In this document: piece after piece, positions 15,381 to 64,000 of the stretch
Position numbering within the stretch: the stretch's first letter is position 1
Layout: each line of letters opens with the position of its first letter
Virus record (IMG/VR): IMGVR_UViG_2935423994_000003
DNA length: 64,000 nt
Origin: a virus
Strand: one strand, 5' to 3'
Notes under the pieces: model-generated
Seen by the model: only the letters and a program-made list of their open reading frames with translations
Database searches by the model: none
What the model was told of the DNA's origin: nothing
Translations under genes and position numbers: made by a program

Positions 15381-15590
15381 TTATCGCAAACGCTCAAACA
15401 GCCTGCGCAGCGTGTAGCTGCGCAGGAGCGAAACGCCGGTGAAGACCCCGCCCAGCGCCAGGTTGTCGCCAAGGCTCGCCTGCAGGCCGAACCACGGAAA
15501 CACAATGATCTGGATGGCCACTGCCAGTGCATAGCCCACGGCGACATTGGTGAGCGCCTCGATCAGCGACATGCGGCGTGATTGGCTCAT
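15381..15590 (-). CDS. Small membrane protein
   Basis: Two hydrophobic segments; homolog at 54781-54996. Confidence 0.7.
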   Translation of the reverse strand: MSQSRRMSLIEALTNVAVGYALAVAIQIIVFPWFGLQASLGDNLALGGVFTGVSLLRSYTLRRLFERLR

Positions 15591-16966
15591 GCGCGCTTTC
15601 TCGACCGGCGCGCGGGCTTCTGGTCTCCCTCGTCCATGACAAGGCGACTGGCTGTCCGCCCCGTGGCCAATTCCCAGCGGCGCACAGCGACGTCGCAATA
15701 GACAGGATCCAGCTCCACCGCGTAGCACCGCCGACCGGTGCGCTCTGCCGCGATCAGCTGGGTGCCCGAGCCGCAGAACGGCTCGAAGACCAGGTCGCCC
15801 GGATCGGTGAAAGCCTCCAGAACCGCTTCGACCAGCGCCACCGGAAACACCGCCGGGTGCGATCCGGCCGCGCCCAGCCCGCCCTTGTGGCGCATGATGC
15901 GGAACACAGAGTCGGGGATGCGATGGCTCTGGATCGTGTTGCCGGTGCCGGTCTTGGGCCTGACCTGTCCGTCGGTGGTGCGCAGGCCGCCGCCGCCCAG
16001 GGTCTCGCCCGCGTGCTTGCTTTCCACCGTCTTGTTGGGTTTGCGCGGCTGGCGGTTGAAGTGGAAGATGAACTCGTGCGAGGGCGCGAGCCGCCCGTTC
16101 CAGTCGCCGGGCAGGCCGGGGCCCTGGTCCCAGACATACCACCCAAACCGCCGCCAGCCCTGCGCGTGCATCCAGTCCACCCAGCCCTCCCAATACGGGA
16201 TCCACTCGCCGTCGCGATGCACGAGGCCGAGATTGACCAGTAGCTGCGCAGCCTCGGCGACCGGTGCCACGGCGAAGACGCCTTGGATCAGCGCATCCCA
16301 ATCGCCGACCTTCTCCTTGGCCGCGCCATAGTCGCGCTGCTGGGCATAGGGTGGGGAGGTGAAAATCAATGTGGCCTGCGCCCCGTCCATCAGACGCGCC
16401 GCCACGGCGGGGTCGGTCGCATCGCCGCAGATCAGCCGATGATCGCCCAGCGCCCAGATGTCGCCCGGACGTGTGATCGGCTCGGCCGGGGCCTCGGGGA
16501 TCGCGTCGGCGGTGTCATCGTCAACGGGCGTGCCGTCGTCGTCACCGGCATCGTGCAGCAGAGTGTCCAGCTCATCTTCGGGGATGCCGATCAGCCCGAG
16601 GTCGAAATCCTCGGCCAGCAGCCCGCGTAGCTCTTCCAGCAGCAGAGCGTCGTCCCAGTCACCCAGCTCGGTCAGCTTGTTGTCGGCGATCCGATACGCC
16701 CGCCGCTGTGCCTCGGTCAGGTGCCCCAGCACGATCACCGGGGCCTCGGTCAGCCCGAGGTGGGCGGCGGCCAAGATGCGGCCGTGGCCCGCGATCAGCT
16801 CGCCATCGGACGCGACGAGACAGGGCACGGTCCAGCCGAACTCGGCCATGCTGGCCGCGATCCGTGCCGCCTGATCGGCGTCGTGCGTCTTGGCATTGCG
16901 GGCATAGGGTTTGAGCCGATCCAGCGGCCAGAATTCGATCTGGCTCGGGCGTAAATGCGTCGTCAT
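15587..16966 (-). CDS. ParB-like N-domain fused to amino-DNA methyltransferase (SPPY)
   Basis: IAGHGR ParB-like motif, FTSPPY catalytic motif, FEPFCGSG SAM-binding motif. Confidence 0.88.
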   Translation of the reverse strand: MTTHLRPSQIEFWPLDRLKPYARNAKTHDADQAARIAASMAEFGWTVPCLVASDGELIAGHGRILAAAHLGLTEAPVIVLGHLTEAQRRAYRIADNKLTELGDWDDALLLEELRGLLAEDFDLGLIGIPEDELDTLLHDAGDDDGTPVDDDTADAIPEAPAEPITRPGDIWALGDHRLICGDATDPAVAARLMDGAQATLIFTSPPYAQQRDYGAAKEKVGDWDALIQGVFAVAPVAEAAQLLVNLGLVHRDGEWIPYWEGWVDWMHAQGWRRFGWYVWDQGPGLPGDWNGRLAPSHEFIFHFNRQPRKPNKTVESKHAGETLGGGGLRTTDGQVRPKTGTGNTIQSHRIPDSVFRIMRHKGGLGAAGSHPAVFPVALVEAVLEAFTDPGDLVFEPFCGSGTQLIAAERTGRRCYAVELDPVYCDVAVRRWELATGRTASRLVMDEGDQKPARRSRKRA

Positions 16967-18225
16967 GCGGTGAGCCGTTTGGCCTTGAGGGCGGCAAAAC
17001 TCTCGCCGGTTTCCACCAGCACTGCCTCCTCGCCGGTGAAGGACTGCCAGCGCTCGATGGCGACATCGACATAGGCCGGGTTCAGTTCCACCCCGTAGCA
17101 AACGCGCCCCGTGGTTTCCGCCGCGATCAGCGTGGTGCCGGAACCCATGAAGGGCTCATAGACCGCCTGACCGGGGACCGAGTTGTTCAGGATTGGCCGG
17201 CGCATGCATTCGACGGGTTTCTGGGTGCCGTGCACCGTGTCTGTGTCCTGATCCTTGTTCGCGATCTGCCACAGCGTCGTCTGCTTGCGATCGCCCGCCC
17301 AGTGGCCCTTGCCCTTGGCGCGCACCGCATACCAGCAGGGTTCATGCTGCCAGTGATAGTCGCCACGGCTCAGCACCAGCCGGTCCTTGGCCCAGATGAT
17401 CTGCGACCGGATGGCGAAACCCGCCGCCAACAGGCTGTCGGCCACGGTGGCGGCATGGAGCGCGCCATGCCAGACATAGACCACATCGCCCGGAAACAGC
17501 GCCCAAGCCTCGCGCCAGTCGGCGCGGTCGTCGTTCAGCACCTTGCCAGTGCGCTTGGTCCTGGCCGCGCCCGCCTGGTTGCGCCAGGATGGGTCATAGT
17601 CCACGCCATAGGGCGGGTCGGTCACCATGAGGAGTGGTCGCACATCACCCAGCAGCCGCCCGACCACATCGGCGGAGGTGCTGTCGCCGCAAATCAGACG
17701 GTGCGATCCCAACTGCCACAGATCGCCCGGTACCGAGACCGGCGTGACCGGTGGTTCGGGAACATCGTCCTCGCCCTCGACCGGGCCATCCCCGCCCAGC
17801 GCCTCGGAGTCCTGCAGCAGCGCGTCCAGATCATCCTCGCTGATGCCCAAGAGCGACAGGTCGAAATCCTCGGCCAAGAGCCCCGCGATCTCGTCGCGCA
17901 AGATCGCCTCGTCCCAGTCGCCCAGTTCCGTGAGTTTGTTATCGGCGATCCGGTAGGCCCGGCGTTCGGCCTCGTCGAGATGGCTGAGCCGGATCACCGG
18001 CACGTCCGTCAGCCCCAGCATGGTGGCCGCCAGCACCCGGCCATGCCCCGCGATCAGCTCGCCATCGTCGGCCACCATGCAGGGCACGGTCCAGCCGAAC
18101 TTGGCCATGCTGGCGGCGATCTTCGCGACCTGGTCGTCGCCGTGCATCCTGGCATTGCGGGTATAGGGGCGCAGCCGGTCGATTGGCCACGTCTCGATCT
18201 CGCTTGGCGCGAAGACAAGGTCCAT
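16963..18225 (-). CDS. ParB-like N-domain fused to amino-DNA methyltransferase (DPPY)
   Basis: IAGHGR, VTDPPY, YEPFMGSG, HGTQKP motifs. Confidence 0.9.
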   Translation of the reverse strand: MDLVFAPSEIETWPIDRLRPYTRNARMHGDDQVAKIAASMAKFGWTVPCMVADDGELIAGHGRVLAATMLGLTDVPVIRLSHLDEAERRAYRIADNKLTELGDWDEAILRDEIAGLLAEDFDLSLLGISEDDLDALLQDSEALGGDGPVEGEDDVPEPPVTPVSVPGDLWQLGSHRLICGDSTSADVVGRLLGDVRPLLMVTDPPYGVDYDPSWRNQAGAARTKRTGKVLNDDRADWREAWALFPGDVVYVWHGALHAATVADSLLAAGFAIRSQIIWAKDRLVLSRGDYHWQHEPCWYAVRAKGKGHWAGDRKQTTLWQIANKDQDTDTVHGTQKPVECMRRPILNNSVPGQAVYEPFMGSGTTLIAAETTGRVCYGVELNPAYVDVAIERWQSFTGEEAVLVETGESFAALKAKRLTA

Positions 18226-18702: not shown

Positions 18703-19092
18703 TCAGGCGTTTCCCTCTTTTGTTTCCAGGTGATACGGCTTGATCAATGCTGCGGCCGGGATTTTCCAGCTGGTGTGGATCTTCTGGATCATAGCCAAGG
18801 TCAGCGGGCGTTTGCGGTTCATGATCTCGGATGCACGGGACTTTCCGCCGACCAGTTCTGCCAGATCACTCTGACGTCTTTGCTTTATGTCCATGAATAC
18901 CTTTAGCGTCTCGATCGGGTCGAGTTCTTCAATTGGGTATTCTCGGTTCTCATAGGCTTCGATCAGATCGGTCAGGATGTCGAAACGATCTGCTTCCGTT
19001 GTTCCGGGCTCAGGTGGAGCGTCGAAATACTGCTCGATTTCCGCAAGTGCCCAGTCCAGGTCTGCATCCGTCCGGATAGCGCGCAATTCCAT
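18703..19092 (-). CDS. higA: HigA-family HTH antitoxin
   Basis: ELRAIRTDAD..AL.EIE...LIEAYE..YPI; QSDLAELVGGKSRASEIMN.KR.LT HTH. Confidence 0.88.
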   Translation of the reverse strand: MELRAIRTDADLDWALAEIEQYFDAPPEPGTTEADRFDILTDLIEAYENREYPIEELDPIETLKVFMDIKQRRQSDLAELVGGKSRASEIMNRKRPLTLAMIQKIHTSWKIPAAALIKPYHLETKEGNA

Positions 19093-19391
19093 CAGATTTT
19101 CTCCACATCGATCTTATCGTATTCGGCATGCGTGCCGATGAACTTGATCATCACACGGTAGTACGGTCCATAGGCAACGCGCGCGACGAGGCGGAATTTG
19201 TTACCACCGATATCAAATACAACACGGCTATCCCCAACGAAGTCTACTGATGTCCCGAACATTTCTTTTACGTCCTGTGGTCGTTCCCATTTGGCCTTCT
19301 CGACCTCGAGATACCAAAACTGAAGCGGTGCTTTCGCAGATGCATGCCTGGTCCAATACTGGACAAGTGCACGCTTCGAAAGAACTCGCAT
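19092..19391 (-). CDS. higB: HigB-family toxin
   Basis: MRVLSKRAL..W...VFDIGGNKFRLV..FIGTHAEYDKID; toxin-first gene order. Confidence 0.9.
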   Translation of the reverse strand: MRVLSKRALVQYWTRHASAKAPLQFWYLEVEKAKWERPQDVKEMFGTSVDFVGDSRVVFDIGGNKFRLVARVAYGPYYRVMIKFIGTHAEYDKIDVEKI

Positions 19392-19455
19392 AGGGCCCTT
19401 TCCCGATTTCCGTAGTGACATGGTTACATGAAAGTGTTCCCAAGCAGGGAACTTG

Positions 19456-20130
19456 TCAAGGCCTGCGAACCTGTGATCTTTCCCACGGCTGCACCTTTGG
19501 CATCACCGCCGTCACCTCCACCTCCCTCAGCATCCGGCCCGCCATCAGCCCGTCCCGCACCCAACCCAGCGCCCGCCACCATTCGTCATAGGCGCGCCGT
19601 GCAGAGTCGATCTGCTGCGGGTGTGGTGAGAAGGTCACCGGGCAGGCACGGACTTCGAGTGTGCGCCATTTCCCACGGATGAGAACCCGTTCCGTCCCGA
19701 CCACGATACTGGCCGCGCGATCACCATGGCGATTGCGCTTGATCTCGACGGGCACGCAGCGCGGCACGGCCCCCGGCATCCAGTCCGGCGTCAGACCTGC
19801 CCGTGCCAGTTCCGCCACGCGGATCGCCATGCGCTTTCCGCCGAGTCTGTCGGGCATCCCGGCGACGGTGGCGGCGATCACCTCGGCATCCTCGTGGGTG
19901 TAGCTGCCCATCTTGTGTCGGCCACCGTCGACCTTACAGCCCAGCGCGGCACGCTGCATCAGGACATATTCGAGGCCAAACCCGAAGCCTTCCTCGACCA
20001 CATCCTCTGGCGGCGGCAGGTCCAGCTGTGCCTTTTCCACCCGGAACGCCCATTCCAGCGCCGCCTGCACGCCCAGCGCGCGTTTGACTTTTGCACCACT
20101 CGTGCGGGTAATTCGTCCCTGCATGCTCAC
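19456..20130 (-). CDS. Conserved protein at the antiterminator-Q position
   Basis: Last early gene before cos; homolog at 62795-63472; function inferred from position only. Confidence 0.55.
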   Translation of the reverse strand: MSMQGRITRTSGAKVKRALGVQAALEWAFRVEKAQLDLPPPEDVVEEGFGFGLEYVLMQRAALGCKVDGGRHKMGSYTHEDAEVIAATVAGMPDRLGGKRMAIRVAELARAGLTPDWMPGAVPRCVPVEIKRNRHGDRAASIVVGTERVLIRGKWRTLEVRACPVTFSPHPQQIDSARRAYDEWWRALGWVRDGLMAGRMLREVEVTAVMPKVQPWERSQVRRP

Positions 20131-21389
20131 GGCTGCAATCCTTCAAAGAGGTTCATTTGCACCGGGCCTGCCGGCTCCTCGCTCGCTCGCCAGATCCACG
20201 GGCCCGAGGCCATGGGCAGCTGCGAGAGAGCGCCACGCATGCGCTGCTGCCAATGGGTGAACGCCGTTGCCGAGCAGGCGCAGAGCGCGTGCCCGATGGG
20301 CCAGCCCATCAGCCATCCGACGAAGAGCGGGTTCAGCCGCCGCCGTGACCGGCCCTTCAGGATCCGCCGCGAGACGGCGCGCCCATGCGAGGCAATCATC
20401 GAAGCCCAGAGCGGGCGCGAGATCGGGGCGTGCGGCGAGGACCGCGGCCCATCCGGCGAGGTCGCCAGGGCTGGGCGGGTGAAGCCCTGCTCCGCCCGAT
20501 AGTGCAGCAGGTCCATTCGGGATTTGCCGTCGGTGCGCGTCACGCTGGCCGGACTGCTGCCCTTCCAGTTCTGCGCCGCCGGTGTCGGCCATTGGATCGC
20601 TTGCGCCGACAGCTTCGGCTCGCCACGACTGTTGATCTTGCCGCGCAGCCGATCCATCTGGTCGTCGGCCACCGGCGTTTGCCATTGCGCCGCCTGCGTC
20701 GGCAGGGGCGGCATTCCGCCCGAGCCATAGCTCTGACCCGGCCCGCCCTTCGCGCCATCTGTGGCCTTCGGTGTCGACCAGTTGGTGATGCCCAGCGCCA
20801 GCGCTTCCGCCTTGCGGGTAAAGTCGCTGTTGCCCGCCGGGTTGTAGCGGGTCGTGCCGGGATGCAGGCTCATCGGTGTGGGCCAGGATGAAGATCCGGA
20901 GCCGCTGGTGCGGCGCGCCAACCTCTGCCGCGCTGAACAGACCCGCCGCAGGCGTGTAGCCCAGGCCCCAAAGCTCTCGCAGGACGGCTTCAAGGCCGAG
21001 GGTGACGTGACCTGCGACGTTTTCGAGGAACACCCATTCGGGGGCGCATTCCCCGATGACGCGGGCGACGTCGGGCCAGAGATGGCGGGGATCGTCGGCC
21101 CCTCCACGCTTTCCGGCGGCGCTGAAGGGCTGGCAGGGATATCCGGCGAGGACGGTGTCAAACGCCCCGCGGAAGGGGCGGGCATCAAAGCTGCGCAGAT
21201 CATCCCAGATCGGGGCCGGGGCGAAGTACCGCGCGGCTTGGGCGGCGATGAGCACGGCGCGGGGCCAGTCCTCCCATTCGACGAAGCATCGGGTGTGGTA
21301 TCCCGGCTCGGCAAGCATGAGGCCCAGATCAAGGCCTCCGCCGCCAGCGCAGAGGGACAATCCGTGCCGGGGACGTGACACCATGGCAT
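20127..21389 (-). CDS. Overlapping-frame ORF carrying W-x-T-P repeats and C5-MTase motif IX (beta-like polypeptide)
   Basis: WPTP/WSTP/WQTP/WPTP repeats, RRLNPLFVGWLMGWP; synonymous conservation with 63469-64000; true start unknown. Confidence 0.7.
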   Translation of the reverse strand: MPWCHVPGTDCPSALAAEALIWASCLPSRDTTPDASSNGRTGPAPCSSPPKPRGTSPRPRSGMICAALMPAPSAGRLTPSSPDIPASPSAPPESVEGPTIPAISGPTSPASSGNAPPNGCSSKTSQVTSPSALKPSCESFGAWATRLRRVCSARQRLARRTSGSGSSSWPTPMSLHPGTTRYNPAGNSDFTRKAEALALGITNWSTPKATDGAKGGPGQSYGSGGMPPLPTQAAQWQTPVADDQMDRLRGKINSRGEPKLSAQAIQWPTPAAQNWKGSSPASVTRTDGKSRMDLLHYRAEQGFTRPALATSPDGPRSSPHAPISRPLWASMIASHGRAVSRRILKGRSRRRLNPLFVGWLMGWPIGHALCACSATAFTHWQQRMRGALSQLPMASGPWIWRASEEPAGPVQMNLFEGLQP

Positions 21390-21393
21390 TCAC
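20143..21393 (-). CDS. C5 cytosine DNA methyltransferase (alpha-like polypeptide)
   Basis: LCAGGGG (motif I), GYPCQPFS (IV), FLENV (VI), HQRLR (VIII), LLGNGV (X); GTG start overlaps the rep stop codon. Confidence 0.88.
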   Translation of the reverse strand: MNAMVSRPRHGLSLCAGGGGLDLGLMLAEPGYHTRCFVEWEDWPRAVLIAAQAARYFAPAPIWDDLRSFDARPFRGAFDTVLAGYPCQPFSAAGKRGGADDPRHLWPDVARVIGECAPEWVFLENVAGHVTLGLEAVLRELWGLGYTPAAGLFSAAEVGAPHQRLRIFILAHTDEPASRHDPLQPGGQQRLYPQGGSAGAGHHQLVDTEGHRWREGRAGSELWLGRNAAPADAGGAMANAGGRRPDGSAARQDQQSWRAEAVGASDPMADTGGAELEGQQSGQRDAHRRQIPNGPAALSGGAGLHPPSPGDLAGWAAVLAARPDLAPALGFDDCLAWARRLAADPEGPVTAAAEPALRRMADGLAHRARALRLLGNGVHPLAAAHAWRSLAAAHGLGPVDLASERGAGRPGANEPL

Positions 21394-22427
21394 AGCACCC
21401 CCCTCTGCCGCAGCCGCTGGGGCGTCACCAGTCCCCGCGCCAGCATGGCGTGGCACATGGCGTTGCTGATCATGCTGGCGGGCAGGTATTCGTCGGAATT
21501 GACCTTGGCCGCGTAGAAGGCCGCAAGCTCGTCATCGCCGGGCCTGGGGCCATCAATGCGCTTGCGGCGTCGGGTGTCGCCGCTGCCGTTTGCTGAGCCC
21601 CTTGCCGCAACCGGTGCGCCGCACTGCTTCAGGCGCCCTGCCGCTCTCTGCATGGCCCGATCGAGCGCCTTGGGTCCATCTGGCGGCTCCGGATGGTCCC
21701 GCCGCGAGGCCTCTGCCACCGCGAGGATCGCGTCCTCGTCGAGACCGAGATCGTCGCGCCAGCGCCGGACATGTTCGCGCGGTGGCCAGCCCTGCCACCA
21801 GCCGGGCAGGGCGGCGGGATCGAGGCCCAGCGCCCGGACCAGCTCCCCGAAAAACTCCTCGGAGATCGCATCGCGCGCCTGCGCGCCCTCCTCCTCCTTT
21901 ACTGGTTTACTTAAAGGTTCCCTTACAGGGTTAGTGTCCGGATTCCGGACACGGGTCGGGGCATTTTCCGGACACGGCTCGGCCGGAAAATCGGACACGG
22001 GTCGGGCCTCACACCCGTGTCCGGTTTCTGGACACGGGTCGTCGTCAGCCTGCGCTTCTTCATCGAAAGGCGCTGGTTCAGCACGGCTTTCTTGCTGGTC
22101 TGGGTTGCCATGTCCGGTATCCGGACACGGGTCTGGCACATGCGGTGTGAAGCCCGCCTCGAACCCCAGAATGTAGCGGGTGGGCATCTGCCGCTTCGTG
22201 ACCGGATGCAAGCGCGGAACACGGCGCAGAAGCCCGACGGCTTCGAGCTGGCCCAGATGCTCGTTCAGCGTCGATCGGCTGATTTCGCAGTCGTGGGCCA
22301 GGCGCTCTTGCGAGGGGAAGCAGCCATAGTCGGGATTGAACCGGTCGCACAGATGCCAGAGCACGATCCTGGTGGTGGGCTTCAGCCCGCGCTGCCTGAT
22401 CGCCCAGTTGGTGGCCTCGTGGCTCAT
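21390..22427 (-). CDS. Replication initiator with N-terminal HTH
   Basis: GCFPSQERLAHDCEISRSTLNEHL HTH typical of phage O-like initiators; internal iterons. Confidence 0.75.
   Translation of the reverse strand: MSHEATNWAIRQRGLKPTTRIVLWHLCDRFNPDYGCFPSQERLAHDCEISRSTLNEHLGQLEAVGLLRRVPRLHPVTKRQMPTRYILGFEAGFTPHVPDPCPDTGHGNPDQQESRAEPAPFDEEAQADDDPCPETGHGCEARPVSDFPAEPCPENAPTRVRNPDTNPVREPLSKPVKEEEGAQARDAISEEFFGELVRALGLDPAALPGWWQGWPPREHVRRWRDDLGLDEDAILAVAEASRRDHPEPPDGPKALDRAMQRAAGRLKQCGAPVAARGSANGSGDTRRRKRIDGPRPGDDELAAFYAAKVNSDEYLPASMISNAMCHAMLARGLVTPQRLRQRGVL
21901..22133. repeat. Iterons (C/T)(C/T)GGACACGG(G/C)TC and adjacent AT-rich tract, putative ori
   Basis: Direct copies at 21945, 21968, 21991, 22028, 22121; inverted copy at 22015; AT-richer 21901-21934. 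Confidence 0.7.
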
Positions 22428-23427: not shown

Positions 23428-23885
23428 GGGTGGCAGTGACCGGCAGTGGCTTGCCGCCCCCCGTGCCACCCCTTGTTTTATTGAAGCTTCATGATTTTGC
23501 GCTGCGGCGCAGCGGGATTTGCAGGTCTTGCAAAGTCGCCTAGGGCCAATTTCGCCGCAGACAGCACCGCCAAATCCGCGCGCAATCGGTCACATTCGGC
23601 GATTTCGGGATGTTTTGGACGACGTTCGGCCAAAGTCAGGGGGTGGCAAGGGTGGCAGTGACCGGCAGTGAGTTGCCGGTTTGCGTGCCGGTCTCTGATT
23701 TCATTGAGCTTTTTCCGGGTCCGCCGACATTGGGCGACCTTTTTCCGGGTCCGCCGACATTGGGCGACATTGGCCCAAGGTGCACGGCCTCGGCGTCGAG
23801 CCGGGCGCGGCAGCCCTTGACGCGAATTGCCAATAAAACAGGGGGTGGCGCGCACTGGCGACGGCACTGCCGGTCACTGCCACCC
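23428..23885. repeat. About 55-bp imperfect inverted repeats plus a third core copy between xis-like gene and int
   Basis: GGGTGGCAGTGACCGGCAGTG at 23428 and 23650, inverted at 23865-23885; CCACCCCTTGTTTTATTG/CAATAAAACAGGGGGTGG arms. Confidence 0.85.
23709..23768. repeat. Perfect 30-bp tandem duplication
   Basis: CTTTTTCCGGGTCCGCCGACATTGGGCGAC x2. Confidence 0.95.
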
Positions 23886-23960
23886 TGCCGGGCTGGCGCC
23901 AGGATTACCTTGCCTGTGCCGCGAATCTACGCGTCATGGACAGGGAAAGGAGGTGCCTCG

Positions 23961-25220
23961 ATGCCGAAACGGGTCCGCTTGAGCGAGAAGGTTCTGCGCG
24001 ATGCCATCCCTGCCGAGGGGCGCGATTACCAGATCTTCGACGATAATGTTCGCGGCTTCGCGGCCTGCATTTACCGCGGCGGCGGGCGCGCCTTCACCCT
24101 CGATTATCGCCATGCGGGACGGCAGCGCCGGATGACCTTCGCGCGCTGGCCCGAATGGTCGGTGTCGGCGGCGCGGGATCGCGCGCGGGAATTGCGCCGC
24201 GATGTCGACCTTGGCCGCGATCCGCTGGCTGAGCGCGACCAGAGCCGCGAAGCCCCTCGCGTGCAGGATCTGATCGACCGCTACCTCAAGGAGCATGTGA
24301 CGCGGCTCTCCGACCTGAACGCGGCCGATCAGAAGTCCATGATGACCAAACTGATCGCCCCGCACTGGGGCAAGAAGCTGGTCACCGACATCACCAGGAC
24401 CGATGTCGAAAAGCTGCTGGCGAAGATCGCCGAGGGCAGGGCGCGGCCGCACAAGGCCAGGCCCAACAACCGCGCCCGCAAGCTGCAGGGGCCCAAGCCC
24501 ACGCCGGTGCGCGCCAACCGCGTGGGCGAGGCCCTGCGCAAGATGTTCAACCTCGCCGTCGAGTGGGGCATGTGCAAGGAGAATCCGGCCAGCGGCTTCT
24601 ATCGGCGCGTCGAGAACCCGCGCGAGCGCTTCCTGACCAGAGAGGAGATCGACCGGCTTTCCGCCGCGCTCGATGCCGATCCCGATCAGCGCGCAGCCGG
24701 GATCATCCGCATCTGCATGCTGACCGGCGCGCGCGTCGGCGAGGTGCGCCAGGCGCGGTTCGAACAGTTCAATCTCGAACTCGGCATCTGGTCCAAGCCT
24801 GCCGCCACCACCAAGCAGCGCAAGGTCCACCGCGTCCCGATTTCCGAGGATGTGGCGGCGATCATCCGCCAGCGCCAGCTGCTGGTGCCCAGGGGCAATC
24901 CATGGCTTTTCCCCGGCGATGTGCCCGGTCAGCCCGTCAAGGAAATCCGCCGCTTCTGGCAGCGGATCCAGAAGGCGGCGGGGATCGAGGATGCGCGGAT
25001 CCACGATCTGCGCCATACCTTCGCGTCGCTGCTGGTCAGTGGCGGGGCGTCGCTCGAGATGATCGGCAAGCTGCTGGGCCATACTCAGATGCAGACGACG
25101 CACCGCTACGCCCACCTGCTCGACGCACCGCTGCGCGCCGGGCTCGATGCCGTGGCCAGTGCGGTCCGGCCACGGCTGAAGGTGGTTCACGATCAGGCAC
25201 CGGATCAGAAATCCGCCTGA
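23961..25220 (+). CDS. int: Tyrosine integrase with N-terminal arm-binding domain
   Basis: LTGARVGE, HDLRHTFAS, LLGH, RYAH catalytic motifs; AGGAGG RBS. Confidence 0.95.
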   Translation: MPKRVRLSEKVLRDAIPAEGRDYQIFDDNVRGFAACIYRGGGRAFTLDYRHAGRQRRMTFARWPEWSVSAARDRARELRRDVDLGRDPLAERDQSREAPRVQDLIDRYLKEHVTRLSDLNAADQKSMMTKLIAPHWGKKLVTDITRTDVEKLLAKIAEGRARPHKARPNNRARKLQGPKPTPVRANRVGEALRKMFNLAVEWGMCKENPASGFYRRVENPRERFLTREEIDRLSAALDADPDQRAAGIIRICMLTGARVGEVRQARFEQFNLELGIWSKPAATTKQRKVHRVPISEDVAAIIRQRQLLVPRGNPWLFPGDVPGQPVKEIRRFWQRIQKAAGIEDARIHDLRHTFASLLVSGGASLEMIGKLLGHTQMQTTHRYAHLLDAPLRAGLDAVASAVRPRLKVVHDQAPDQKSA

Positions 25221-59860: not shown

Positions 59861-61090
59861 ATGACGGATTTCGGGACGCTGTTGCAGCAGGCCGGTTGGT
59901 CGGTGCCGGATGCAGCGAAGATACTGGGGTATTCCGAAGGTCACATCTATCGCTGGAAGCGTGGAGAGGAAACACCCCGTGACGGCGTGCTGCACCTTCT
60001 CCGACACGAGATTGGCGCACTGACCCGGTCGCACACCGACAGCGCGTTCACCTTCATTGACCTGTTTGCCGGTATCGGCGGGTTGCGCAAAGCCATGGAG
60101 GGGGCGGGCGGGCGGTGTGTGTTCACCTCTGAATGGGACAGGTTTGCTCAGCAAACCTATCACGCCAATTTCCCCGACAACCGGCCAATTGCAGGAGACA
60201 TTCGCGAGGTTGAGGCCGCCGACATTCCGCACCATGATGTTCTGGTGGCTGGCTTCCCATGCCAACCGTTCTCGATTGCAGGTGTCTCAAAGAAAAATGC
60301 ACTCGGGCGGCTGCACGGGTTTCTTGATGAAACGCAGGGCACGCTGTTTTTCGACGTACTGCGGATCCTGATGCATCACCGGCCACAAGCCTTCCTGCTG
60401 GAGAACGTAAAGAATCTCAAAAGCCATGATCAGGGCCGGACGTTCGAAGTGATCCGGCGAGCGCTGACGGACGAACTGGGCTATACACTGGAAACCCGGA
60501 TCATTGATGCGGCGCATTTTGTGCCGCAGCATCGCGAGCGGATTGTGATGGTGGGTTTTCGCCAAAAGACCGGCTTTTCGTTTGATGACATGCAGATGCC
60601 CAGTCGTGGCGGCCGAAAGATGCGCGATGTGCTGCATGCTGAAGATGGCACCGAAAGACCCGAGAGCCATTTCACGGTTGGCCCGGATGCACGGGTGAGT
60701 GACAAATACACCCTGAGCGACAAGCTGTGGCGGTATCTCCGGGACTACTCGGACAAGCATAAGGCCAAAGGCAACGGCTTTGGCTTTGGTCTGGTTGATG
60801 GCAACAGCGTCGCGCGCACGCTTTCAGCACGGTATTACAAAGATGGGTCGGAAATTCTGGTGAGTCGTGGTGAAGGTCAGAACCCGCGTCGCCTGACGCC
60901 GCGCGAATGCGCAAGGCTGATGGGCTACGATGAAAGCTTCCGGATACCTGTGTCCGACACGCAGGCTTACCGGCAGTTTGGCAACTCGGTCGCGGTTCCC
61001 GTCTTTGCCGAAGTGGCTCGCCTGATGCGCCCGCACATATTGGCCCTGAAGGACGGCGATCAAGAGCAGCCATTGTCCGCCGTTGGCTGA
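59861..61090 (+). CDS. dcm: Dcm/M.EcoRII-like C5 methyltransferase with N-terminal HTH (likely CCWGG)
   Basis: FIDLFAGIGG, GFPCQPFS, LENVKNL, PQHRER, RTLSARYYKDGSEIL (Dcm-type TRD), RRLTPREC, FGNSV. Confidence 0.92.
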   Translation: MTDFGTLLQQAGWSVPDAAKILGYSEGHIYRWKRGEETPRDGVLHLLRHEIGALTRSHTDSAFTFIDLFAGIGGLRKAMEGAGGRCVFTSEWDRFAQQTYHANFPDNRPIAGDIREVEAADIPHHDVLVAGFPCQPFSIAGVSKKNALGRLHGFLDETQGTLFFDVLRILMHHRPQAFLLENVKNLKSHDQGRTFEVIRRALTDELGYTLETRIIDAAHFVPQHRERIVMVGFRQKTGFSFDDMQMPSRGGRKMRDVLHAEDGTERPESHFTVGPDARVSDKYTLSDKLWRYLRDYSDKHKAKGNGFGFGLVDGNSVARTLSARYYKDGSEILVSRGEGQNPRRLTPRECARLMGYDESFRIPVSDTQAYRQFGNSVAVPVFAEVARLMRPHILALKDGDQEQPLSAVG

Positions 61091-61571: not shown

Positions 61572-62810
61572 ATGAAATTCGGTCAGATTTCTGATCTCTT
61601 TGCGGGCGCTGGTGCCAAGTATCTGAGTGAAGTCGAAGTGAACCGCCTCCGCTCAAATCAGCACGAGTTTCAGGGGGTGGGAGGTTTTCGCGCCTTTCTT
61701 GGAACACCCGCGGAAAAGGTGACATTCCCAGCCACGTTTTATTGGCTGGATGATGAGGACGACACGCGACCTGAAGGCCTCAGTTCCTTCTGCACCTGGA
61801 GCGATGTGCGCCGCGGTAAGGCTGGCCGGAGTGCTGAATATCACCTCTATTATTCGGCAGAGTCCGAACCGGTCGTGCATCGTGCGCGGGCCGGGGATCT
61901 CGTTGTCATCGCGCGGACGAAGGACGACCGCCTTCTGGTGATGCTCGCACCTGCTGAATCCACGATCGGCGCGCAGCTTCTCTGGTTGTTTGGCCTTGAT
62001 CTGCTTGCCGGAAGACCGGACGCAATTGAACTCGGCGCAGAAAATAGTGTCAGTCTCGGGCTGGCCGCCCGGAGCATTCTCGACGATCTGGGCATCGAGG
62101 CCGACGAACCACAGCCCGATGCGCTTGGGTTGCTGCTCGATACTTTTGGCCTTCGGTTTCCCGGCACGGTAGCGTTCTCCGATTTCGCTCGCAGCACGTT
62201 GACCGGCATTGATCCGCGCGATGCGCCGGATGAAGCGCTCGTGGCATGGATGGAGCACGAGGAGGCGCTGTTCCGGCACATGGAGCGACAGGTCATGACA
62301 GAACGATTGGGAAATGGTTTCATGAGCGATGGTACGGCAGACGTCGACGGTTTTCTGTCCTTTTCGCTAAGTGTGCAGAATCGCCGTAAATCGCGTGCAG
62401 GGTGGGCATTCGGACATCATGTCGAAGCAATCCTTCAGGCGCAGGGGTTGGACTTCAAACGTGAAGCGACGACCGAAAAGCGCAACGCAGCGGATTTCCT
62501 TTTCCCAGGAGAACTGCAATACGCGGACGCAACATTTCCGGCAGACCGGTTGGCGATGCTGGCGGTGAAAACCACATGCAAGGATCGCTGGCGTCAGGTG
62601 CTGGCAGAAGCGAACAGAATTCCTGCCAAACACCTGCTCACTTTGGAACCCGCGATTTCCGAGACCCAGACCGCCGAGATGCAGGCTCAGAGCCTGCAAC
62701 TGGTTTTGCCTGCACCGCTTCACGCCACATATCGCGAAACACAACGGGCTTGGCTGATGAGCTTGCGAGATTTTATTGGGCTGGTTCAGGGGCATCAAAT
62801 TATCGCCTGA
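61572..62810 (+). CDS. EcoRII-like type II restriction endonuclease
   Basis: RRKSRAG, DFLFPG, MLAVKTTCKDRWRQVL.EA.RI EcoRII C-terminal signature. Confidence 0.88.
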   Translation: MKFGQISDLFAGAGAKYLSEVEVNRLRSNQHEFQGVGGFRAFLGTPAEKVTFPATFYWLDDEDDTRPEGLSSFCTWSDVRRGKAGRSAEYHLYYSAESEPVVHRARAGDLVVIARTKDDRLLVMLAPAESTIGAQLLWLFGLDLLAGRPDAIELGAENSVSLGLAARSILDDLGIEADEPQPDALGLLLDTFGLRFPGTVAFSDFARSTLTGIDPRDAPDEALVAWMEHEEALFRHMERQVMTERLGNGFMSDGTADVDGFLSFSLSVQNRRKSRAGWAFGHHVEAILQAQGLDFKREATTEKRNAADFLFPGELQYADATFPADRLAMLAVKTTCKDRWRQVLAEANRIPAKHLLTLEPAISETQTAEMQAQSLQLVLPAPLHATYRETQRAWLMSLRDFIGLVQGHQIIA

Positions 62811-63472
62811 TGGGGCCGGGGCGACCACGGTCGCACTTTCGGCATCACGGCCGTCACATCCACCTCGCGCAACATCCCGCCTGCGATCAACCCCTCCCGC
62901 ACCCAGTCCAGCGCCAGCCACCAATCGTCATAGCCGCGCCGGGCGGCTGCGATCTGTTCCGGATGCGGCCGCCAGGTGACTGGGCAGGCCAGAACCTCGA
63001 CCGTGCGCCAGCGCCTGCGATGCAGCACGCGTTCGATGCCCACCACGATTGTGGTTGCCCGCTCGCCATGCTGATTTTGCCTAGTTTCCATAGGCACACA
63101 GCGTGGCACGACACCGGGCATCCAGTCGGGCGTCAGGCCAGCCCGCGCCAGTTCGGCCACGCTGATCGCCATGCGGATGCCGCCGAGGCTGTCGGGCATT
63201 CCGGCGACGGTGGCGGCGATCACCTCGGCGTCCGCATGGGTATAGCTGCCCATCTTGTGCTGGCCGCCGTCGACCTTGCAGCCAAGTGCTGCGCGTTGCA
63301 GCAGGACGTATTCGAGGCCAAAACCAAAGCCTTCCTCGGTCACGTCCTTTGGCGGCGCCAATTCCAGCTGGGCCTTTTCCACCCGGAACGCCCATTCCAG
63401 CGCCGCCTGCACGCCCAGCGTGCGTTTGACCTTGCTGCCGCCAATGCGGCCAATCCGCCCCTGGATGCTCAT
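62795..63472 (-). CDS. Conserved protein at the antiterminator-Q position
   Basis: Homolog of 19456-20130. Confidence 0.55.
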   Translation of the reverse strand: MSIQGRIGRIGGSKVKRTLGVQAALEWAFRVEKAQLELAPPKDVTEEGFGFGLEYVLLQRAALGCKVDGGQHKMGSYTHADAEVIAATVAGMPDSLGGIRMAISVAELARAGLTPDWMPGVVPRCVPMETRQNQHGERATTIVVGIERVLHRRRWRTVEVLACPVTWRPHPEQIAAARRGYDDWWLALDWVREGLIAGGMLREVDVTAVMPKVRPWSPRPHQAII

Positions 63473-64000
63473 GGTTGCAGTCCGTCAAACAGGCTCATCT
63501 GCGCCGGGCGCTGGGCATCGTCGGTCGGCCGCCAGATCCACGGGCCCGAGGCCATGGGCAGCTGCGAGAGCGCGCCACGCATGTGCTGCTGCCAGCGGGT
63601 GAACTCCGTTGCCGAGCAGGCGCAGAGCGCGTGCCCGATGGGCCAGCCCATCAGCCATCCGACGAAGAGCGGGTTCAGCCGCCGCCGCGACCGGCCCTTC
63701 AGGATGCGCCGACATGCGACGCGCCCATGCGAGGCAATCATCGAAGCCCAGAGCGGGCGCGAGATCGGGGCGTGCGGCGAGGACCGCCGCCCATCCTGCA
63801 TGATCGCCGGGGCCGGGCGGGTGAAGCCCTGCTCCGCGCGATAATGCCGGATATCCATCCGGGACTTGCCGTCGGCGCGCATCACGCTGGCCGGGCTGCT
63901 GCCCTTCCAGTTCTGCGCCGCCGGTGTGGGCCATTGCAGGGCCTGTGCCGATAGTTTCGGCTCGCCCCTGCTGTTGATCTTGCCACGCAGCCGATCCATC
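63469..64000 (-). CDS. C5-MTase overlapping frame (motif IX, WPTP), partial
   Basis: Homolog of 20127-21389; runs off window. Confidence 0.7.
   Translation of the reverse strand, partial: MDRLRGKINSRGEPKLSAQALQWPTPAAQNWKGSSPASVMRADGKSRMDIRHYRAEQGFTRPAPAIMQDGRRSSPHAPISRPLWASMIASHGRVACRRILKGRSRRRLNPLFVGWLMGWPIGHALCACSATEFTRWQQHMRGALSQLPMASGPWIWRPTDDAQRPAQMSLFDGLQP
63485..64000 (-). CDS. C5-MTase main frame C-terminus (motif X), partial
   Basis: EPALRRMADG..LRLLGNGV; open to the window edge. Confidence 0.8.
   Translation of the reverse strand, partial: DGSAAWQDQQQGRAETIGTGPAMAHTGGAELEGQQPGQRDARRRQVPDGYPALSRGAGLHPPGPGDHAGWAAVLAARPDLAPALGFDDCLAWARRMSAHPEGPVAAAAEPALRRMADGLAHRARALRLLGNGVHPLAAAHAWRALAAAHGLGPVDLAADRRCPAPGADEPV

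Follow-up and report, generated by a model that had tools for sequence, protein, structure and literature searches.

The 64,000-nucleotide (nt) stretch of viral DNA analysed here (IMG/VR record IMGVR_UViG_2935423994_000003; hereafter the window) carries on its minus strand a prophage gene for a C5 DNA methyltransferase in which two open reading frames (ORFs), A and B, occupy the same DNA. ORF analysis showed both frames to be open from end to end. The initial annotation, made from the letters alone, had described a methyltransferase split over two fully overlapping frames, with catalytic motifs in A and W-x-T-P repeats in B, and every detail of that description was borne out by the ORFs and their translations. 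The elements of the locus are as follows.

20143..21393 (-): frame A, the alpha chain; ~413 codons with the stop TGA at 20143-20145, within an open frame that extends over 20143..21456.
20127..21389 (-): frame B, the beta chain; 420 codons in the +1 frame of A, from an ATG at 21389 to a stop at 20127-20129.
21382..21403 (-): start cluster, with a G-rich Shine-Dalgarno (SD)-like run (21398-21403), the sequence [G/A]TGAATG and an ATG at +5.
20127..20130 (-): the beta stop TGA and the downstream gene's start overlap, as GTGA in the window and as ATGA in 61/71 relatives.
63469..64000 (-): 3' part of another copy, which lies in a second prophage and extends beyond the window; both frames open.

As the beta start lies 4 nt after the alpha GTG and the beta end 16 nt after the alpha stop, the two ORFs are coextensive. 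The region has a G+C content (GC) of 68-69% (67-69% for the window), and long alternative ORFs are not rare in such DNA. The genome that contains the window has two copies of the gene, the second as a whole being 89% identical to the first with both frames fully open. In public records, the last 248 codons of frame B are labelled "hypothetical protein" or "DNA methyltransferase"; the earlier expectation that annotation would miss such an enzyme needs correction in that frame B is not overlooked altogether.

Frame A has the features of a catalytic chain. The signature motifs of C5 methyltransferases, LCAGGGG (I), GYPCQPFS (IV), ENV (VI) and QRLRIF (VIII), occur together in its first 175 residues, and motif X (LLGNGVHPLAAAHAW) is found near the end of the same chain; its core, LLGNGVHP, is invariant in 72/72 sequences of the alignment described below, with wobble at the third codon position of frame A (A3). 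Overall, motifs I-VIII are followed by an unconstrained spacer of ~130 codons and then by ~100 conserved codons at the C-terminus that include motif X. The Pfam model PF00145 covers only residues 33-197 (E value 5.8e-30), and frame A is further matched by the NCBIfam model TIGR00675 (E 9e-21), by M.HhaI in a phmmer search (E 4.5e-11), and by phrog_363, which aligns over residues 9-390 with profile positions 57-315 of 327 (E 1e-52). Taken in isolation, the frame-A tail matches three PHROGs of DNA methyltransferases at their C-terminal ends (E 3.5e-5 to 1.8e-4); no Pfam match was found with isolated alpha tails. Over motifs I-VIII, alpha aligns with the Dcm-type methyltransferase encoded elsewhere in the window with an hhalign probability of 97.7%. 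In the AlphaFold2 model of alpha, the head is confident, with a predicted local distance difference test (pLDDT) score of 70-87, residues 174-309 form a disordered spacer (pLDDT ~25), and the C-terminal helices are less confident (pLDDT ~50-66). Between motifs VIII and X, neither a recognition domain nor motif IX was found in frame A, only this variable spacer predicted to be disordered. The model (residues 4..403) superposes on residues 10-326 of the 327 of M.HhaI (Z 18.3; root-mean-square deviation 2.7 Å; 185 aligned), and because it matches M.HhaI from the N- to the C-terminus, alpha is, as modelled, a complete large domain without the small domain.

Frame B is organized differently. A Pro/Ser/Ala-rich head, which lies over the catalytic domain of alpha and is mostly its out-of-frame shadow, is followed by a predicted helix, four W-x-T-P units (at residues 169, 204, 236, and 267), a motif-IX-like segment, and a conserved Trp-rich C-terminus. 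The bases that encode the motif-IX-like RRLNPLFVGWLMGWP in frame B read EPALRRMADG in frame A. A total of 585 homologues of beta were identified, and its relatives comprise 2,955 clusters at 50% identity. Full-length frame-B ORFs occur in representatives down to 38% identity, starting with M.WCHVPETD (the shadow of motif I) and with no Pfam domain. Beta matches phrog_27243, whose function is not annotated, and phrog_1008, annotated as "DNA methyltransferase" (E 1.5e-6). On a third family, phrog_10223, the IX-like piece of beta weakly matches positions 35-58 (E 0.009) and motif X of alpha matches positions 55-101, which gives the canonical order of IX then X, here read in two frames. A tblastn search of 50,697 deposited phage genomes with beta gave no match at E 1e-5; PHROGs, which are partly built from prophages, do contain it. 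Most likely, the functional part of beta serves as the small domain for DNA recognition that is missing from alpha. An internal start at Met173, corresponding to the 248-amino-acid (aa) public ORF, was considered and is disfavoured, given that constraint on frame B already extends to the WPTP immediately before it and that the head stays free of stops.

The putative signals for translation of both frames are tightly packed: a span of 12 nt accommodates the stop codon of the RepO-like gene upstream, the start of alpha, and the ATG of beta. In [G/A]TGAATG, the alpha start overlaps the upstream stop and the beta start abuts the same stop, and the SD-like G-rich run lies 5-10 nt upstream. Two candidates exist for the alpha start, the GTG at 21393, which overlaps the upstream TGA, or the ATG at 21384; this second candidate, 5 nt past the beta ATG, is ATG in 56/72 sequences. 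Among close relatives, the TGA and the beta ATG are invariant (72/72), and at position 21393, 70 sequences have G and 2 have A. At distant loci without an abutting gene upstream the design is the same: a single SD precedes the beta ATG, and the alpha start (ATG or GTG) follows 5 nt after it.

Selection on the two frames was assessed with the alignment of 72 distinct full-length sequences, in which variation was measured by codon position and, in an allele test, as the fraction of possible single-base changes actually seen in each class. Changes synonymous in A and nonsynonymous in B (Asyn/Bnon) were thereby set against those nonsynonymous in A and synonymous in B (Anon/Bsyn); the "stop" classes of the allele table, being scored in the context of consensus codons, give too high a figure for real stops, for which a separate direct count was made. 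The regions and their values, Asyn/Bnon being given first, are listed here.

21031-21384 (-): alpha motifs I-VI; 0.84 vs 0.30; A constrained as protein, B kept stop-free.
20862-21030 (-): alpha motifs VII-VIII, with the predicted beta helix WATRLRR..ARR and first WPTP; 0.50 vs 0.26; both constrained.
20487-20861 (-): beta W-x-T-P repeats (presumed target recognition), with the alpha spacer; 0.22 vs 0.83; B constrained.
20433-20486 (-): alpha pre-X segment LHPPGPGDHAGW; 0.73 vs 0.52; A more constrained, B a variable linker.
20190-20432 (-): second doubly constrained stretch, ~80 codons, comprising the three entries below.
20283-20340 (-): beta motif-IX-like segment RRLNPLFVGWLMGWPIGH / LNPLFVGWLMGWPIGH; 0.11 vs 0.50; B dominates.
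20241-20282 (-): alpha motif X; 0.44 vs 0.18; A dominates, GNGV invariant.
20341-20432 and 20190-20240 (-): shared codons; 0.33-0.34 vs 0.39-0.51; both constrained.

The codon positions at which variation accumulates follow the same alternation. Across alpha motifs I-VI, A3 is the most variable position (entropy ~0.9); at 20862-21030 its entropy is down to 0.4-0.5, and the four-fold sites of A under WPTPM are invariant. Through the repeats of beta the wobble is at B3 and the A residues vary freely, and in the alpha pre-X segment B2 (= A3) is variable and B3 (= A1) invariant. Further downstream, the rare Ala codon GCA that is the source of the Asn in GNGV is kept in 72/72 sequences, and at 20190-20240, where beta MRGALSQLP..GPWIW lies over alpha LAAAHGLGPVDL, the four-fold sites of A are invariant under the M, R, L, P, and W of beta. 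Altogether, ~135 codons are constrained in both frames. The two copies in this genome differ in a like manner: their differences at A1/A2/A3 number 12/3/38 in the head and 37/8/4 in the repeat module. An earlier comparison of 20586-20657 with 63928-63999 was reproduced exactly, with 12 base differences that amount in frame B to 9 synonymous codon changes and one I/L change, and in frame A to 9/23 changed residues and zero stops.

Those segments of each frame that vary freely as protein appear nonetheless to be kept free of stops. Within the alpha spacer, T at B3, which is synonymous in B, was seen in 63/75 columns where it is safe (13% of cells), vs 1/25 columns (1/1,597 cells) where a stop would arise in A (column-level Fisher p = 3e-13). 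For example, the GAC at 20666 (before GAC) is never GAT, and the next GAC (before CAG) is GAT in 26/46 sequences. This test is independent of how the loci were chosen, and the exclusion of stop-creating synonymous changes suggests that the alpha spacer is translated. For the beta head, G-ending Leu and Val codons were found in 0/4 columns where TGA would arise in B vs 22/27 elsewhere (p = 0.004), and the head is open in 72/74 full-length loci found through the tail alone. Together, the alternating and double constraint by codon position and allele class indicates that the frame under selection changes along the gene and that in places both are selected, consistent with the earlier proposal that both are under selection, and these sequence data strongly support the reality of dual coding.

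One objection is that the gene is broken or mis-sequenced and that its second open frame is a by-product of high GC. The 67-69% GC of the window, at which long alternative ORFs are common, gives this view its appeal, and when codons of the window gene alone were shuffled synonymously, each half stayed open with a probability of ~0.1 (0.07-0.11). A scan of one genome per species, however, yielded 223 stretches encoding a beta relative, from which 80 loci were kept, all from Rhodobacterales isolates and metagenome-assembled genomes with 82-88% nt identity. In 80/80 of these, frame A encodes the methylase head and the +1 frame the repeat module, and in ~70/80 neither frame is interrupted over its whole length, the ORF boundaries being at matching positions; the layout is thus present in two copies here and in ~70 of 80 other genomes. 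At six distant loci (35-57% aa identity; GC 58-68%), 0 stops were found in A and B compared with 13-19 in the third sense frame; for four of them (L082, L088-L090), an open frame B was a condition of the way they were found, but an open frame A was not. Even at 58-61% GC, with 15-19 stops in the third frame, the layout is retained. Codon shuffling at these six loci gave a chance of 0 to 0.019 per locus that frame A would be open across the B-coding tail. Moreover, stop-creating synonymous changes are specifically missing and each frame has its own wobble pattern. The comparison with other genomes hence indicates that the second open frame is neither chance nor sequencing error, and it refutes the broken-gene explanation, which is almost certainly wrong.

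Exceptions among the 80 loci resemble decay or truncation, several having a replaced or cut N-terminus. Locus L067 (Cypionkella sinensis) has a frame-A stop 15 codons past the junction that follows motif VIII, L043 also has a frame-A stop, and L028 has a frame-B stop at the Trp of the first WPTP; these three are candidate natural knock-outs of one chain. Two unusual arrangements were also observed. On a metagenome-assembled contig of 56% GC (L087:3001-4188), a beta-like gene has a real-looking N-terminus and its -1 frame is open for ~470 codons, in which only motif-VIII-like and motif-X-like segments were recognized; motifs I-VI were not seen nearby. This may be a variant whose catalytic head is encoded elsewhere or lost. 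On a single short-read contig (L081:1864-3252), one indel after the first WPTP brings head A and tail B into a single frame, and the frame with motif X is open on its own; this locus could be a natural variant with a single chain, a copy undergoing decay, or a product of misassembly.

Given these data, we consider it quite likely that the locus encodes an orphan C5 DNA methyltransferase of the prophage, specified by two coextensive same-strand genes whose two chains assemble. Alpha would contribute the large catalytic domain in two parts, joined by a translated, disordered spacer constrained solely against stops, and beta would consist of a stop-free shadow head followed by the helix, the W-x-T-P repeats, the motif-IX-like segment, and the conserved C-terminus. 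Ribosomes would pick between the start codons 4-5 nt apart behind the one G-rich ribosome-binding site, a choice that would yield both chains from one messenger RNA, and alpha and beta would then assemble into an active enzyme in the manner of M.EcoHK31I, the two-polypeptide methyltransferase to which the initial annotation had likened the locus. Comparative data support the core of that proposal, a dual-coded methyltransferase; the mechanism of start choice, the formation of a heterodimer, and the role of beta in recognition are what we infer for the enzyme.

Several points weigh against this interpretation. Translation of both chains is deduced from sequence. The full-length frame-B ORF calls that led to four of the six distant loci (L082, L088-L090) introduce a bias into that part of the evidence, and the test of beta-head openness in the close family had only four informative columns. 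In a few metagenomic ORFs (P0035, P0118), head A and tail B are fused in frame, so that a single-chain form may also be viable. As for the identity of beta, it was matched by no Pfam or NCBIfam model, and a Pfam search with 45 of its relatives was also empty; its AlphaFold2 model, built with a 45-sequence alignment, is poor (mean pLDDT 54; predicted template modelling score 0.21). The initial annotation had aligned the motif-IX-like segment of frame B with motif IX of the Dcm in the window, and the best local match between the beta profile and this Dcm obtained with hhalign does pair the two (RRLNPLFVGWLMGWP to RRLTPRECARLMGY), which makes the assignment plausible, but the match is non-significant (E 0.19; probability 0.3%).

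The last of these points would be expected if alpha alone were a complete short methyltransferase and frame B an overprinted, unrelated protein, such as a DNA-binding or anti-restriction factor. The end-to-end alignment of alpha with the short phage methyltransferases of phrog_363 (profile length 327) is compatible with this, as are the failure of beta to match a protein family and the result of a PDB sequence search, which returned only a chance match to beta-galactosidase (E 0.08). Yet alpha has no ordered small domain, residues 174-309 being variable and disordered; pieces of beta match PHROGs annotated as DNA methyltransferase, with the IX-then-X order on phrog_10223 (its IX-like piece being the weak one); and M.EcoHK31I provides a precedent for two chains. 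We regard an unrelated overprinted protein as an improbable explanation.

The fused metagenomic ORFs bear on another alternative, that a programmed +1 frameshift after motif VIII makes a fused active chain, full-length A and an independently started B being by-products. Such a fusion would restore the canonical order, with the recognition domain between motifs I-VIII and motif IX. Conservation of nucleotides at the junction is high, and P0035 has the junction HTDEPA|PGT, exactly as a +1 shift at GCA-T-CCC predicts; the distant L081/P0118 is likewise fused. Conservation of the junction is, however, already accounted for by double coding (LAHTD in A, WPTPM in B). Inspection of the sequence after motif VIII revealed no slippery run or homopolymer, no rare-codon trap, and no 0-frame stop; frame A continues for 242 codons beyond the junction before a stop, so that it does not resemble a prfB-like +1 frameshift site. 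No known recoding RNA was recognized with Rfam, the only hit being a sub-threshold match to "hya" (E 0.15; 24.9 bits vs a gathering threshold of 56.8) that was taken as chance. At the distant relatives, the frame-A residues of the junction differ and no shared slippery site is evident, as judged by residues rather than nucleotides. Furthermore, the fused chain would lack motif X, though motif X and the pre-X segment of A are strongly selected, and a fusion leaves the exclusion of stops from the A spacer and the B head unexplained. The "frameshift-assembled" enzyme that had been offered earlier as an alternative is likewise disfavoured, since A is selected at 20433-20486 and B at 20190-20240 and no single frame-switched chain fits both; a frameshift is an unlikely source of the activity.

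A chain that shifts twice (from A to B and back to A) was also rejected, as A-specific and B-specific conserved segments overlap at 20190-20432. The conserved tail proper to A begins at 20486, upstream of motif IX of beta, and the C-terminus proper to beta reaches 20190, downstream of motif X of alpha. The overlap of these segments on the DNA requires at least two products, as the two-chain enzyme proposed here would supply.

The methylase lies in the early region of its prophage, and a second, related prophage begins at the window end. The gene order is given below.

Early region of the prophage (-): integrase (23610-25220), VRR-NUC nuclease, RepO-like initiator, dual-coded methylase, phrog_9306 protein.
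Continuing (-): HigB/HigA, two ParB-domain DNA methyltransferases, large terminase, portal, head protease.

A conserved 224-aa phrog_9306 protein always follows the methylase (19456-20130 (-) and 62795-63472 (-) in the window); as the start of its gene overlaps the beta stop, it may be translationally coupled to beta. Between this methylase module and the ParB-methylases is a pair (18703-19421 (-)) that consists of a HigB-type toxin (PF09907, E 2e-27) and a downstream 129-aa partner, presumably HigA. The two adjacent ParB-methylase ORFs (15587-17101 and 16963-18225 (-)), which as listed overlap by ~139 nt, each encode a ParB-like N-terminal domain and a DNA methyltransferase domain, and both match phrog_498 (E 1e-115 and 6e-153). 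With these two and the dual-coded methylase, the prophage carries three methyltransferase genes. On the opposite strand, a single-chain C5 methyltransferase of the canonical Dcm type, whose motifs IX and X are read in the same frame (59861-61087 (+)), is followed by a 412-aa ORF with no assigned function (61572-62810 (+)); adjacent to the second prophage, the two may constitute a restriction-modification pair.

In both bacteria and phages, long overlaps between genes on the same strand are regarded as very rare, and such genes are discarded by annotation pipelines. The overlap described here spans ~1.26 kb with strong comparative support, and on balance it is probable that a whole-gene overlap of ~420 codons, with starts 4-5 nt apart and stop-free shadow segments, specifies two products that form one methyltransferase. 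If the 2,955 clusters of beta relatives reflect the spread of this layout, it would be among the longest and most widespread conserved dual-coding genes in bacteria and viruses and, if the interpretation is true, one that is systematically mis-annotated as one gene or a fragment. ORFs of the beta type are recorded as "hypothetical protein", and alpha may be taken for a frameshifted or truncated methylase; assignments of methylomes to genes for such prophages would consequently be wrong or incomplete. The locus would also offer a natural system for the study of how two proteins share one sequence, with functional segments alternating with shadow spacers, of how close start codons might set the stoichiometry of subunits, and of how C5 methyltransferases are split into catalytic and recognition chains.

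In the literature search, the only precedents found were M.EcoHK31I, M.AquI, and an unresolved remark on the mycobacteriophage Corndog, and no paper was found on the present methylase family or its selection pattern. In Corndog (gp7/gp6) and its Cluster O relatives, segments of a methylase are distributed over two frames that overlap, and the overlap has coding potential; the authors left open whether two products assemble or a frameshift, ribosome hop, or splicing is involved, and mentioned similar cases in other phages (PMC4351075). The likeness is one of description, and the Corndog genes are two adjacent, partly overlapping ones for which no selection analysis was presented and whose products were undetected by mass spectrometry (PMC4351075). 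M.AquI (CYCGRG) is an alpha/beta C5 methyltransferase divided into motifs I-VIII and IX-X (Karreman and de Waard, 1990, cited in PMC3404938; PMC2836561), and the present enzyme, as proposed, resembles it as a natural heterodimer split after motif VIII in the variable region. The small subunit of M.AquI comprises both motifs IX and X, whereas motif X is here read in the alpha frame. With M.HhaI and the Dcm of the window, alpha shares the fold of the large domain; unlike the arrangement here, the single chain of those enzymes includes, after motif VIII and before motif X, both the recognition domain and motif IX.

The closest parallel is M.EcoHK31I of E. coli HK31 (YGGCCR), a two-polypeptide C5 methyltransferase (Lee, Kam and Shaw, 1995, described in PMC2836561, PMC3404938). 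Its alpha polypeptide contains motifs I-VIII and X together with the recognition domain, its beta polypeptide provides motif IX from another frame inside the alpha gene, and both chains are required for activity (PMC2836561, PMC3404938). By description, the two systems are alike in that two chains would arise from two frames of the same DNA, both frames being kept by selection in the present case. The beta of M.EcoHK31I is small and nested, whereas the frames here are coextensive (420 and ~413 codons) with starts 4-5 nt apart; the recognition domain that alpha holds in M.EcoHK31I is presumably replaced here by the W-x-T-P module of beta; and, unlike in M.EcoHK31I, each chain of the present enzyme would include a long translated stretch constrained only against stops.

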